Origin: a virus
Lineage: Duplodnaviria; Heunggongvirae; Uroviricota; Caudoviricetes
DNA: 12,885 nucleotides
Strand: one strand, 5' to 3'
IMG/VR virus record: IMGVR_UViG_2657245081_000004
The position numbers were made by a program, and so were the translations under genes. This document shows, one piece after another, positions 4,846 through 10,993 of this stretch (position 1 is its first letter; each line of letters begins with the position of its first letter). Below the pieces are notes generated by a model. The model was given only the letters and a program-made list of their open reading frames with translations. It made no database searches and was not told the origin of the DNA.

Positions 4846-4903
4846 AAAAAGGGCGGCAGAGCAGTCACGGAGTAAAACTGATACCGCCAAACGTCACCAG
4901 AAA
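4846..4903 (-). ncRNA. dicF: DicF small RNA (ftsZ-targeting) with its intrinsic terminator
   Basis: Minus-strand sequence UUUCUGGUGACGUUUGGCGGUAUCAGUUUUACUCCGUGACUGCUCUGCCGCCCUUUUU matches remembered DicF; ends in a GGCGG/CCGCC stem plus U5. Confidence 0.85.
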
Positions 4904-9114: not shown

Positions 9115-9471
9115 ATGGAAATAAAACCAGAGGATGAGTTAAGCAATATCGTTTTATTTCCGGTAAAAGAGGATGACCCTCGTAATCAGGTTAATTTTCT
9201 TTATGAGCCATCGGAAAGACCATATTGTCATCACGCCTCTGTCCGGGTTGACGAAAAAGAGCGTCAGGTCCGCTGTAAAATCTGCGGTGCAGTTGTGGAG
9301 CCATTTGACTGGATGCTCTCTGTGGCGAAAAGAGAAACCAGACTGGCAGATGATGTAAGGCTCTTGCGTCAGGAGGAGCGGGAAAGGCGAAAAAATATAG
9401 AAAAGCTAATTCAGATTGAGCGTAACGCGAAAGCGCGGATACGCAGGGCGACAAAATCCAGAACTGAATAA
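9115..9471 (+). CDS. Hypothetical protein (118 aa) with possible zinc-ribbon motif (CHH...CKICG) and basic C-terminal tail
   Basis: GGAGAGGAG upstream of ATG 9115; alternative GTG start at 9058 would add 19 aa. Confidence 0.55.
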   Translation: MEIKPEDELSNIVLFPVKEDDPRNQVNFLYEPSERPYCHHASVRVDEKERQVRCKICGAVVEPFDWMLSVAKRETRLADDVRLLRQEERERRKNIEKLIQIERNAKARIRRATKSRTE

Positions 9472-9564
9472 TTAAATTTAGCTCTGTTAAAAATTTAATC
9501 CTTAACCGGAGGGATTTCTGCACCCTCAGAACATCAGGAGGCCGCCCGAAAGGGCGGTAGTTAA

Positions 9565-9747
9565 ATGCGAAAGTTTAAAATAATTATTGAAACGGGAATA
9601 GCCGGTGGAGATTTCGAGGATGAATTCGAAGTGGATGATGATGCGACGCCTGATGAAATACATGACGAAGCAAAAGATATTTTCTTTAACTACTGCAATT
9701 ACTCATATCACGAAATAAAAGACGAAGAGGAAGAACAAAATGGCTGA
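9565..9747 (+). CDS. Small highly acidic protein (60 aa; about 20 Asp/Glu, 5 basic)
   Basis: Composition counted by hand; the Shine-Dalgarno AGGAG at 9536-9540 is separated from the ATG by a GAAA-tetraloop hairpin (9541-9558). Confidence 0.5.
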   Translation: MRKFKIIIETGIAGGDFEDEFEVDDDATPDEIHDEAKDIFFNYCNYSYHEIKDEEEEQNG

Positions 9748-9916
9748 TTTTGGTTCAACTAAATACAACGTCAGTTTTGAAGAATGGCATGAACTGTTAA
9801 TGGACTATGCAGAGTTACGTGGTGGCAGTGCTGCTGATGCTGAAGCATGGCGTGATGATTATGAAGCAGGAAAAACTCCGGTCGAAGCATATTGTGATGA
9901 GTGGGGCGATGAATGA
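9740..9916 (+). CDS. Small acidic protein (58 aa), translationally coupled to the preceding acidic ORF
   Basis: Hand translation MADFGSTKYNVSFEEWHELLMDYAELRGGSAADAEAWRDDYEAGKTPVEAYCDEWGDE; GAGGAAG 8 nt upstream; start overlaps the upstream stop by 8 nt. Not in the ORF track (below cutoff). Confidence 0.5.
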   Translation: MADFGSTKYNVSFEEWHELLMDYAELRGGSAADAEAWRDDYEAGKTPVEAYCDEWGDE

Positions 9917-9974
9917 GCGAGGTTAATTATCAGGAAGGGCATGAAACGGCGGGGCAAGCAAAAACAGTGGCATG

Positions 9975-10229
9975 GCGATATCGCTACGTGAAAAAAAAGG
10001 CGTTACGGACTTTCAGGGGAAGTAGTGGTCTGGTGACTGGAAATATGTACCGAAAAAAGAGGATTGTAACGACAGGCCGAACTATGAAATTCAGGCCTTA
10101 TTCACTGCCCCGCCAGTCCCGGTTACATCAGAAGAACTGGTTAAAGCTGTGCACTTTTATGAACAACTAAAACGCGAAAATCCACCAGCATCCGGAAACC
10201 TGATTACAGATTCCCAGATAAGGCAATGA
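9975..10229 (+). pseudogene. Interrupted ORF: 17 codons from ATG 9975, in-frame TAG at 10023-10025, then 67 sense codons with no start codon
   Basis: The frame reads MAISLREKKGVTDFQGK, TAG, then WSGDWKYVPKKEDCNDRPNYEIQALFTAPPVPVTSEELVKAVHFYEQLKRENPPASGNLITDSQIRQ. The track ORF 9913..10170 is in another frame and is basic and low-complexity. Confidence 0.35.
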
Positions 10230-10399
10230 GCTACCTGGCGCAGAACGGGCTGATAAGTATGGGGAATGTTTTACGATGAATATTTAGACTAAAGAGTTTG
10301 TAACGCTATGTAAGTGATTTTTTCTGGTTTAGATATTTATATGTCCGGCCAAATTGAGGTGTGTTTAAATGTAATTGCACATTGATTGTAGGAGGAATA

Positions 10400-10579
10400 A
10401 TGAAAAACGCATTGCAGTTTTTGTTTGTTGCGTTCTGGTTGTTCGTATCATGTATGCCCATCATCTTCACAGCAAGGTATATGGAAAAAGTTGATGTTTT
10501 GATATTAATATTTGGATATATAAATGCCCTTTTTTTAGGGGTGTTCATGGCGGTCATGTGCATTGAATACTGGCGGTAA
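10400..10579 (+). CDS. Small hydrophobic protein (59 aa) with two predicted transmembrane helices, in an AT-rich island
   Basis: MKNALQFLFVAFWLFVSCMPIIFTARYMEKVDVLILIFGYINALFLGVFMAVMCIEYWR; GGAGG 4 nt upstream of ATG 10400; surrounding DNA (about 10260-10620) is visibly AT-rich. Confidence 0.55.
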   Translation: MKNALQFLFVAFWLFVSCMPIIFTARYMEKVDVLILIFGYINALFLGVFMAVMCIEYWR

Positions 10580-10634
10580 ATACAGCGAACGCCATTGGTT
10601 TAGTTGGATATTTACTGTGCCGGACAAAAACGGT

Positions 10635-10662
10635 TTGCGGGGAAATCTTAGTTAAGTAGAAT
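10635..10662 (+). promoter_or_regulatory. Candidate hok mRNA promoter (TTGCGG-N16-TAGAAT)
   Basis: Hexamers seen in sequence about 170 nt upstream of hok, the distance expected for the long structured hok leader. Confidence 0.3.
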
Positions 10663-10734
10663 GACTGCGGGTGCTTGAGGCTATCTGTCTCAGGCATGAA
10701 CACCAAAAGGCAGATAGAGAAAAGCCCCAGTTAA

Positions 10735-10800
10735 CATTACGCGTCCTGCAAGACGCTTAACATTAATCTGAGGCCATATCTATGCGACACATAGAGATTA
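10735..10800 (-). ncRNA. Putative Sok-like antisense RNA region (approximate bounds)
   Basis: Minus-strand promoter-like TTGACC (complement of 10821-10826), 16-nt spacer, GCTAAT, reading across the mok-like start; position matches hok/sok architecture. Ends not determinable. Confidence 0.35.
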
Positions 10801-10841
10801 GCCTCTTACGGACCGAAAGGTCAAGGAGAAGCAGGCTATGA
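10782..10841 (+). CDS. Short leader ORF (19 aa) ending in ATGA overlap with the hok start; mok-like coupling frame
   Basis: ATG 10782 with GAGG 8 nt upstream; stop TGA overlaps the hok ATG. Confidence 0.35.
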   Translation: MRHIEISLLRTERSRRSRL

Positions 10842-10993
10842 AGCAGCAAAAGGCGATGTTAATCGCCCTGATCGTCATCTGTTTAACCGTCATAGTGACG
10901 GCACTGGTAACGAGGAAAGACCTCTGCGAGGTACGAATCCGAACCGGCCAGACGGAGGTCGCTGTCTTCACAGCTTACGAACCTGAGGAGTAA
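10838..10993 (+). CDS. hokD: Hok-family type I toxin (51 aa), HokD/RelF-like
   Basis: Hand translation MKQQKAMLIALIVICLTVIVTALVTRKDLCEVRIRTGQTEVAVFTAYEPEE matches remembered HokD; not in the ORF track (below cutoff). Confidence 0.85.
   Translation: MKQQKAMLIALIVICLTVIVTALVTRKDLCEVRIRTGQTEVAVFTAYEPEE

Follow-up and report, generated by a model that had tools for sequence, protein, structure and literature searches.

Comparison with homologous loci points to the segment at 9913–10279 as a non-functional relic (pseudogene) of a small early-region prophage gene of family phrog_660, and not a site of programmed recoding; we put the probability of this reading at about 93%. Coordinates refer to the window, i.e., the whole 12,885-nt stretch of DNA that was analyzed (IMG/VR record IMGVR_UViG_2657245081_000004). 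The ancestral 171-amino acid (aa) frame is broken three times: by the expansion of a run of six adenines to eight (A6-to-A8), by an in-frame TAG, and by deletions with a net loss of 151 nt. A sequence-only reading of this DNA had left the choice between pseudogene and recoding open. The pseudogene alternative is the right one because open homologues have a sense codon at 10023–10025, while both recoding alternatives are unsupported, given the open homologues, the lesions and the lack of conservation of the slippery heptamer. Pseudogene status is already known from RefSeq, where PGAP annotates identical DNA, exactly 9913–10229, as a pseudogene ("hypothetical protein; frameshifted; internal stop"; e.g., NZ_CP015834.1 1431022–1431338). 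What is added here beyond the PGAP annotation is the position of each lesion and a likely order of events.

Location of the broken gene in a lambdoid prophage

The window belongs to a lambdoid (Qin/Rac-like) E. coli prophage, of which it is the early-right region, and identical DNA occurs across many complete genomes. In the PGAP annotation of NZ_CP015834.1, from which the gene order was taken, the upstream neighbors include exonuclease, dicB, and ydfC/ydfB, then repressor-like regulators, a YdaT-family protein, a DUF977 protein, and a 118-aa hypothetical protein; the 3′ neighbors of the broken gene are hokD, a DUF968 protein, RusA, and an antiterminator. The phrog_660 relic is placed between the DUF7167/phrog_519 genes and the hok/sok locus, and its ATG at 9913 overlaps the stop codon of the upstream gene (ATGA, 9913–9916). 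The surrounding features are as follows:

4851–4902, minus strand: DicF sRNA (Rfam, 76.7 bits)
9565–9747: DUF7167 protein (PGAP)
9740–9916: 58-aa hypothetical protein, directly before the broken gene (PGAP)
10306–10563, minus strand: ORF antisense to the next entry
10400–10579, plus strand: 59-aa ORF, unannotated by PGAP
10669–10840, plus strand: hok/sok element RF01794 (Rfam, 106.7 bits), adjoining hokD at about 10838–10993

The presence of DicF and hok/sok is consistent with a Qin-like prophage. A scan of 9400–10900 for promoters and terminators yielded nothing notable: a single weak promoter-like site on the minus strand, and nothing resembling a terminator. The ORF at 10400–10579, just upstream of hok/sok, encodes a strongly hydrophobic peptide (MKNALQFLFVAFWLFVSCMPIIFTARYMEKVDVLILIFGYINALFLGVFMAVMCIEYWR), has a consensus AGGAGG 4 nt 5′ of its ATG, and overlaps the antisense ORF. 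Its peptide had zero Pfam or PHROG matches, and among phage records it was found in three near-identical records only, which annotate the antisense 85-aa ORF instead; PhiR42_1 lists it as a hypothetical protein, and the other two list it as "hornerin". Related alleles keep the 59-aa peptide with a V-to-A change.

Reading frames and lesions

Translation bore out the frame-3 ORF of 17 codons described earlier (ATG 9973, MAISLREKKGVTDFQGK, ending at TAG 10023–10025), as well as the 67 open frame-3 codons that follow it (10026–10226, closed by TGA 10227–10229), within which the earliest ATG, GTG, or TTG is a GTG at codon 42. The frame-1 ORF runs from ATG 9913 to TAA 10168–10170 (85 aa). Within it, AAAAAAG at 10053–10059 does lie in the A_AAA_AAG register claimed for it, with frame-1 codons AAA (10054–10056) and AAG (10057–10059), such that a −1 slip enters frame 3. 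What the sequence-only reading missed was a run of eight adenines, G_AAA_AAA_AAG, which provides a second in-register AAAAAAG at 9993–9999. The change of frame, which had been put at 10053–10059, was misplaced, the real site being this A8 run at 9991–9998. The extent reported for the interrupted gene, 9913–10229, is accurate but incomplete, as the ancestral gene runs on in frame 2 to TGA 10277–10279. Likewise, the 67-codon stretch that had been taken for ordinary protein is indeed open, but its last 13 codons (ASGNLITDSQIRQ) no longer follow the ancestral reading frame because the deletions shift it.

The intact 171-aa homologue P0001 was compared with the window by tblastn, and DNA alignments were used to place the lesions. 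The tblastn comparison divided the homologue into three pieces, collinear with the window but each in a different frame; the TAG falls within the middle one:

9913–9996, plus strand: aa 1–28, frame 1, 89% identity; native N-terminus
9993–10187, plus strand: aa 27–91, frame 3, 86% identity; holds the TAG
absent from the window: aa 92–144, deleted
10196–10276, plus strand: aa 145–171 (KPDYRFPDKAMSYLAQNGLISMGNVLR), frame 2, 56% identity
10277–10279, plus strand: ancestral stop TGA, frame 2; PGAP pseudogene features in alleles with a run of seven adenines (A7) end here

Read as relics and lesions, the locus is arranged in this order:

9913–9990, plus strand: relic of codons 1–26, frame 1
9991–9998, plus strand: A8 homopolymer, where the reading passes from frame 1 to frame 3; the true frameshift lesion
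9999–10187, plus strand: relic of codons 29–91, frame 3, carrying the conserved core motif
10188–10195, plus strand: deletion scar; aa 92–144 removed and the frame changed again
10196–10279, plus strand: relic of the C-terminus, frame 2
10227–10229, plus strand: TGA, frame 3, ending the 67-codon stretch and also the stop of the 104-aa alleles L013 and L023

The A8 of the window corresponds to A6 in all nine sampled open alleles (GTG AAA AAA GGC, Val-Lys-Lys-Gly), a difference of +2, and among broken alleles the run is found as A6, A7, A8, or A6 with the adjacent G deleted. Downstream, a 90-nt in-frame deletion lies at 10187/10188. Around 10195/10196 another 61 nt net are missing, made up of 4 nt and a 57-nt deletion between CGG microhomologies; the "149-nt class" alleles L003, L005, and L016, which are intermediate, served as the comparison. 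The distance from CCACCA to the ancestral stop is accordingly graded among alleles, at 243 nt (open 171-aa alleles), 149 or 148 nt, and 92 nt (window). The TAG at 10023–10025 aligns with ATG, CTG, CCG, or CAG in the open homologues (171, 129, 119, and 104 aa) and with TGG in a Shigella dysenteriae allele, and the residue in the corresponding protein column varies among M, R, P, Q, A, W, S, and L. Since the S. dysenteriae allele combines TGG with the flanking sequence of the window, the TAG likely arose from TGG by a single G-to-A transition.

These comparisons suggest a lineage that was inactivated first and drifted afterwards, in which the length of the A-run would have changed through replication slippage and the 57-nt deletion between CGG microhomologies would have taken out two further stops. 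Ribosomes starting at ATG 9913 would mostly yield the 85-aa peptide, composed of 28 native residues followed by 57 in the wrong frame. Some unprogrammed −1 slippage probably takes place at the two in-register A_AAA_AAG motifs; slips at the first would stop at the TAG and slips at the second would produce a chimera without the core, and neither product is likely to be selected.

The phrog_660 family and its open alleles

The intact 171-aa homologue matches phrog_660 (PHROG, function unknown) over residues 2–171 with an E-value of 1.7e-73, and 1,616 homologues of it were present in the protein collection. The Pfam search with this protein gave no family, and the PHROGs search gave only families of unknown function. 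The frame-1 85-aa ORF of the window aligns with phrog_660 over residues 2–31 only (E-value 0.006), and no full-length profile match was obtained from the window locus, whose homology is recovered only by reading three frames. By this comparison, the locus descends from a phrog_660 member and encodes none. Compared with the members WP_029400500.1 (171 aa) and WP_001529162.1 (104 aa), it is syntenic, collinear, and 86–89% identical over the retained N-terminal pieces; unlike them, it is broken by a frameshift, a stop, and deletions, and standard decoding can yield no member-like protein.

Uninterrupted ORFs at the syntenic position, all after the same DUF7167 and 58-aa genes, are present in other genomes. 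The alignment of homologous loci that had been proposed on the basis of the letters was thus carried out, and it gave the outcome named at the time as marking a simple pseudogene, namely uninterrupted ORFs with a sense codon at 10023–10025. The open alleles fall into four lengths:

171 aa: L006, L019, L022, L026
129 aa: L027
119 aa: L024, L025
104 aa: L013, L023 (NZ_CP086618.1, NZ_CP115330.1; WP_001529162.1)

In the protein alignment, the family has a conserved core motif, W.GDWKYVP.KEDCNDRP.YEIQALF, and a conserved native N-terminus, MSE(I/V)NYQEGHETAGQAKPVAWRYRYV. An AlphaFold model of the 171-aa member has a mean pLDDT of 54, with only residues 20–62 reaching about 75–78. The 104-aa allele (L013, L023) resembles the open 171-aa alleles in its 5′ half, while its 3′ half matches the window pseudogene exactly, down to the 151-nt deletion and the stop; it looks like a recombinant. 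The segment at 10131–10188 encodes VTSE(E/G)LVKAV(H/R)FYEQ(L/V)KRENPP, which is common to proteins with quite different N-termini (homologues P0051, P0082, and P0093 and matches H89 and H104–H106), including ead/Ea22-like (PF13935) and DUF551 proteins. Such sharing indicates modular (mosaic) exchange within the family, as judged from the alignments.

Allele diversity, frequency, and selection

Of 5,426 complete E. coli genomes, 2,127 contained a match to the 317 bases of 9913–10229 (2,157 records in all), with about 620 records at least 99% identical to the window allele and many at 100%. Allele classes were assigned by inspecting 26 loci at the homologous position, and the class frequencies are approximate, as they come from evenly spaced samples of ranked match lists and the representatives that were read. 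On this basis, the window type (A8 + TAG) makes up about 30% of matching records, A6 + TAG and the open alleles with Thr-Lys in place of the heptamer each make up about 25%, and a few per cent are A7 or otherwise broken; TAG-type alleles are estimated at roughly 60% of the loci that carry the gene. The TAG was present in 14 of 14 sampled loci with AAAAAAG at the second heptamer site (10053–10059), the S. dysenteriae loci excepted. The TAG-bearing alleles carry at least five different lesion combinations, some with the 57-nt deletion:

TAG + A8: window, L001, L002, L011
TAG + A7: L004, L012, L015
TAG + A6 with a second TAG and a 4-nt deletion: L003, L005, L014, L016, L020
TAG + A6 with the adjacent G deleted: L017
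TAG + A6 with the adjacent G deleted and a further 1-nt deletion: L018

The variety of these sets argues that the secondary lesions are independent. To look for an intact progenitor, a synthetic repaired allele (A6 + TGG + AAAAAAG) was compared with the 5,426 complete genomes; it had no match of at least 99% identity, and no unbroken form of the allele turned up. The adjacent DUF7167 gene likewise carries a pseudogene annotation (internal stop) in the A6 + TAG lineage (L005, NZ_CP027355.1; L016, E. coli IAI39, NC_011750.1), at locus positions 1153–1335 in L005 and 56–238 in L016, which suggests regional decay of this prophage segment.

Polymorphism was compared over the 88 codons common to all alleles, for which the neutral expectation of nonsynonymous to synonymous changes (N:S) is 3.7:1. 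The ratio was 11:2 among the nine haplotypes of the TAG clade (binomial P = 1.0 versus neutral) and 25:22 among the eight haplotypes of open alleles (P = 9e-5); with as few as 13 and 47 changes, the Fisher test between the two groups was borderline (P = 0.056 two-sided, 0.038 one-sided). The direction is as expected for a pseudogene, with small counts. Three substitutions in the TAG clade, Gly40Val, Glu58Gln, and Gly74Glu, fell on nearly invariant family positions. The same broken allele was found at 99.7% identity in the phage records vB_EcoS-640R1 and vB_EcoS-813R8, recovered from E. coli, where the frame-1 85-aa ORF is annotated as a hypothetical protein; given its occurrence in these two records, the phrog_660-type gene appears dispensable.

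Overall, the locus has uninterrupted syntenic homologues, lesions that are disabling by comparison with them, and signs of relaxed selection with independent secondary lesions, the last in small numbers. In these respects it is like the prophage pseudogenes that PGAP labels "frameshifted; internal stop", which have intact relatives, several lesions, and relaxed selection, and nothing material sets it apart from them.

The slippery heptamers

The window contains five copies of AAAAAAG, where 3.98 ± 1.96 are expected; at least five were present in 68 of 200 shuffles, so the heptamer is at chance level and not enriched. In the ancestral frame, the site at 10053–10059 reads CCG AAA AAA GAG (Pro-Lys-Lys-Glu). 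The open alleles have ACAAAAG at this position in nine of nine sampled cases, read as CCG (TCG in L025) ACA AAA GAG with Thr-Lys. Among the best 120 homologous proteins, 98 contain the motif, with TK in 97 and KK in one; this lone KK protein, P0030, was called in the frameshifted S. dysenteriae allele with an internal ATG as its start. AAAAAAG at this second heptamer site was seen in broken copies only, and the A6 and A7 alleles that also carry it do not have it in the frame-1 register. The frame-1 register in the window is due to the +2 insertion upstream and is a by-product of it, not a conserved design.

Programmed −1 sites are expected to have a stimulator, in the form of a stem-loop or pseudoknot 5–9 nt downstream and/or an upstream Shine-Dalgarno-like sequence, and neither form was detected here. 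RNA folding compared with shuffled sequences gave no significant structure at 10060–10130 (z = −0.68), 10000–10070 (z = +0.15), or 10040–10140 (z = −0.74), and the 20 nt 5′ of either heptamer, as read from the sequence, contain no GGAGG-like or Shine-Dalgarno-like motif. The E. coli dnaX site is the natural comparison, as the window has the same A_AAA_AAG heptamer, in the 0-frame register and in E. coli. It differs from dnaX, with its upstream Shine-Dalgarno-like element and downstream stem-loop, in lacking the former and any significant downstream hairpin; furthermore, its heptamer and two-frame layout are not conserved in homologues, and the trans-frame product would be without the core.

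Recoding and other explanations

Programmed −1 frameshifting at 10053–10059 would join 48 codons of frame 1 to 56 codons of frame 3, bypass the TAG, and give a functional 104-aa protein. The heptamer is in the correct 0-frame register and leads into an open −1 frame, and no heptamer known in E. coli is more slip-prone than A_AAA_AAG (Atkins et al. 2016, PMC5009743), which makes some background slippage at the window heptamers plausible. The same source describes the heptamer as only moderately counter-selected, and as unselected in many weakly expressed E. coli genes (PMC5009743). The predicted junction peptide is ...GNMYRKKEDCNDRPNYEIQ... (i.e., ...NMYRKK followed by EDCNDRP...), in which aa 29–48 are the out-of-frame residues KALRTFRGSSGLVTGNMYRK. 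These would displace GVTDFQ..W.GDWKYVP, the nearly invariant core and part of the only region modelled with moderate confidence, such that the sequence on the two sides of the shift is not conserved and selected. This loss, together with the neutral pattern of the frame-3 segment in the TAG clade, the missing stimulators, the off-register heptamers of the A6 and A7 alleles, and the single-frame, heptamer-free layout of the nine sampled open alleles, makes programmed frameshifting very unlikely, and the comparison with homologues largely refutes it. The other recoding route, amber readthrough or suppression of TAG 10023–10025, would join the 17-codon ORF from ATG 9973 to the 67 codons as an 85-aa protein. 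Both segments share a frame, and taken together they look like the family core; an equivalent internal-ATG call exists in S. dysenteriae (P0030), where the codon is TGG. The union of the two segments by readthrough, which had been raised as a possibility, was nonetheless unsupported. The 17-codon ORF is not the native N-terminus, and its ATG has no Shine-Dalgarno sequence and skips the native 26 residues that begin MSE(I/V). Moreover, the stop is not a conserved feature between intact flanks, as its position is a variable sense codon in open homologues and it is confined to alleles with further disabling lesions. A tRNA search of the window found no tRNA gene and hence no suppressor. To our knowledge, natural E. 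coli isolates are normally without amber suppressors. Readthrough is accordingly rated as extremely improbable, below frameshifting.

It was also considered whether the A-run is phase-variable or "leaky", with slippage on A8 restoring the frame in some cells or messages, as in a "pseudo-pseudogene". Run length does differ (A6, A7, A8) among near-identical alleles, and slippage on long A runs is documented (PMC5009743). The most favorable case is the S. dysenteriae allele (L007–L010; CP026836, CP026824, CP026845, CP026846; gene at 1442–1959), which has A8, TGG, and a full-length 3′ part, i.e., an otherwise open 171-aa-type frame; a single slip on A8 there restores a near-native protein, and it is thus the only allele seen with conceivable slippage-dependent expression. 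Its current gene call, from an internal frame-3 ATG, is the 152-aa "bacteriophage protein" P0030, present on 54 contigs. In the window, by contrast, a slip at the first heptamer (9993–9999) regains the native frame only to meet the TAG eight codons on, and with aa 92–144 also gone through the 151-nt deletions, correction at the A-run is futile. A6 is kept in all nine sampled open alleles, length varies only in TAG-inactivated alleles and S. dysenteriae, and efficient RNA polymerase slippage is described for runs of nine, against eight here. The arrangement recalls compensatory or "savior-indel" frameshifting, as in the G-run mutants of herpesvirus thymidine kinase (PMC5009743), in having a homopolymer indel with a slip-prone sequence nearby, but the window product carries no sign of selection. 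A leaky A-run is therefore held to be improbable to about the same degree as programmed frameshifting. Equally doubtful is the related idea that slippage at A_AAA_AAG is used and not just tolerated, by which the 104-aa chimera of the window would have some activity and an A8 slip in S. dysenteriae would give a near-native protein of 172 aa; if true, the S. dysenteriae allele would be a "pseudo-pseudogene". Finally, homopolymer runs are error-prone in some technologies, and the frameshift could be a sequencing or assembly error in one record. This explanation, the least probable of all, was rejected on the basis of hundreds of identical independent assemblies, with about 620 independent complete-genome records matching the 317 bases at 99% or more; in addition, the TAG and the deletions are not homopolymer errors.

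Two observations sit less easily with a pseudogene. The broken allele is very common, which can be read as retention, although hitch-hiking with a successful prophage explains its persistence. It is also a striking coincidence that two A_AAA_AAG motifs lie in register less than 60 nt or so apart, and some trans-frame product is probably made.

Implications

Automatic annotation has produced artefacts at this locus, among them the 85-aa ORF listed as a "hypothetical protein" in phage record ON470612.1 and the 152-aa protein that gene callers begin at an internal ATG in S. dysenteriae. The biological weight of the pseudogene is small, as it represents another decaying accessory gene in a widespread E. 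coli prophage. It does carry a caution, in that an in-register slippery heptamer near an in-frame stop can arise purely from a homopolymer indel in a pseudogene, and comparison of homologous loci settles such cases quickly.
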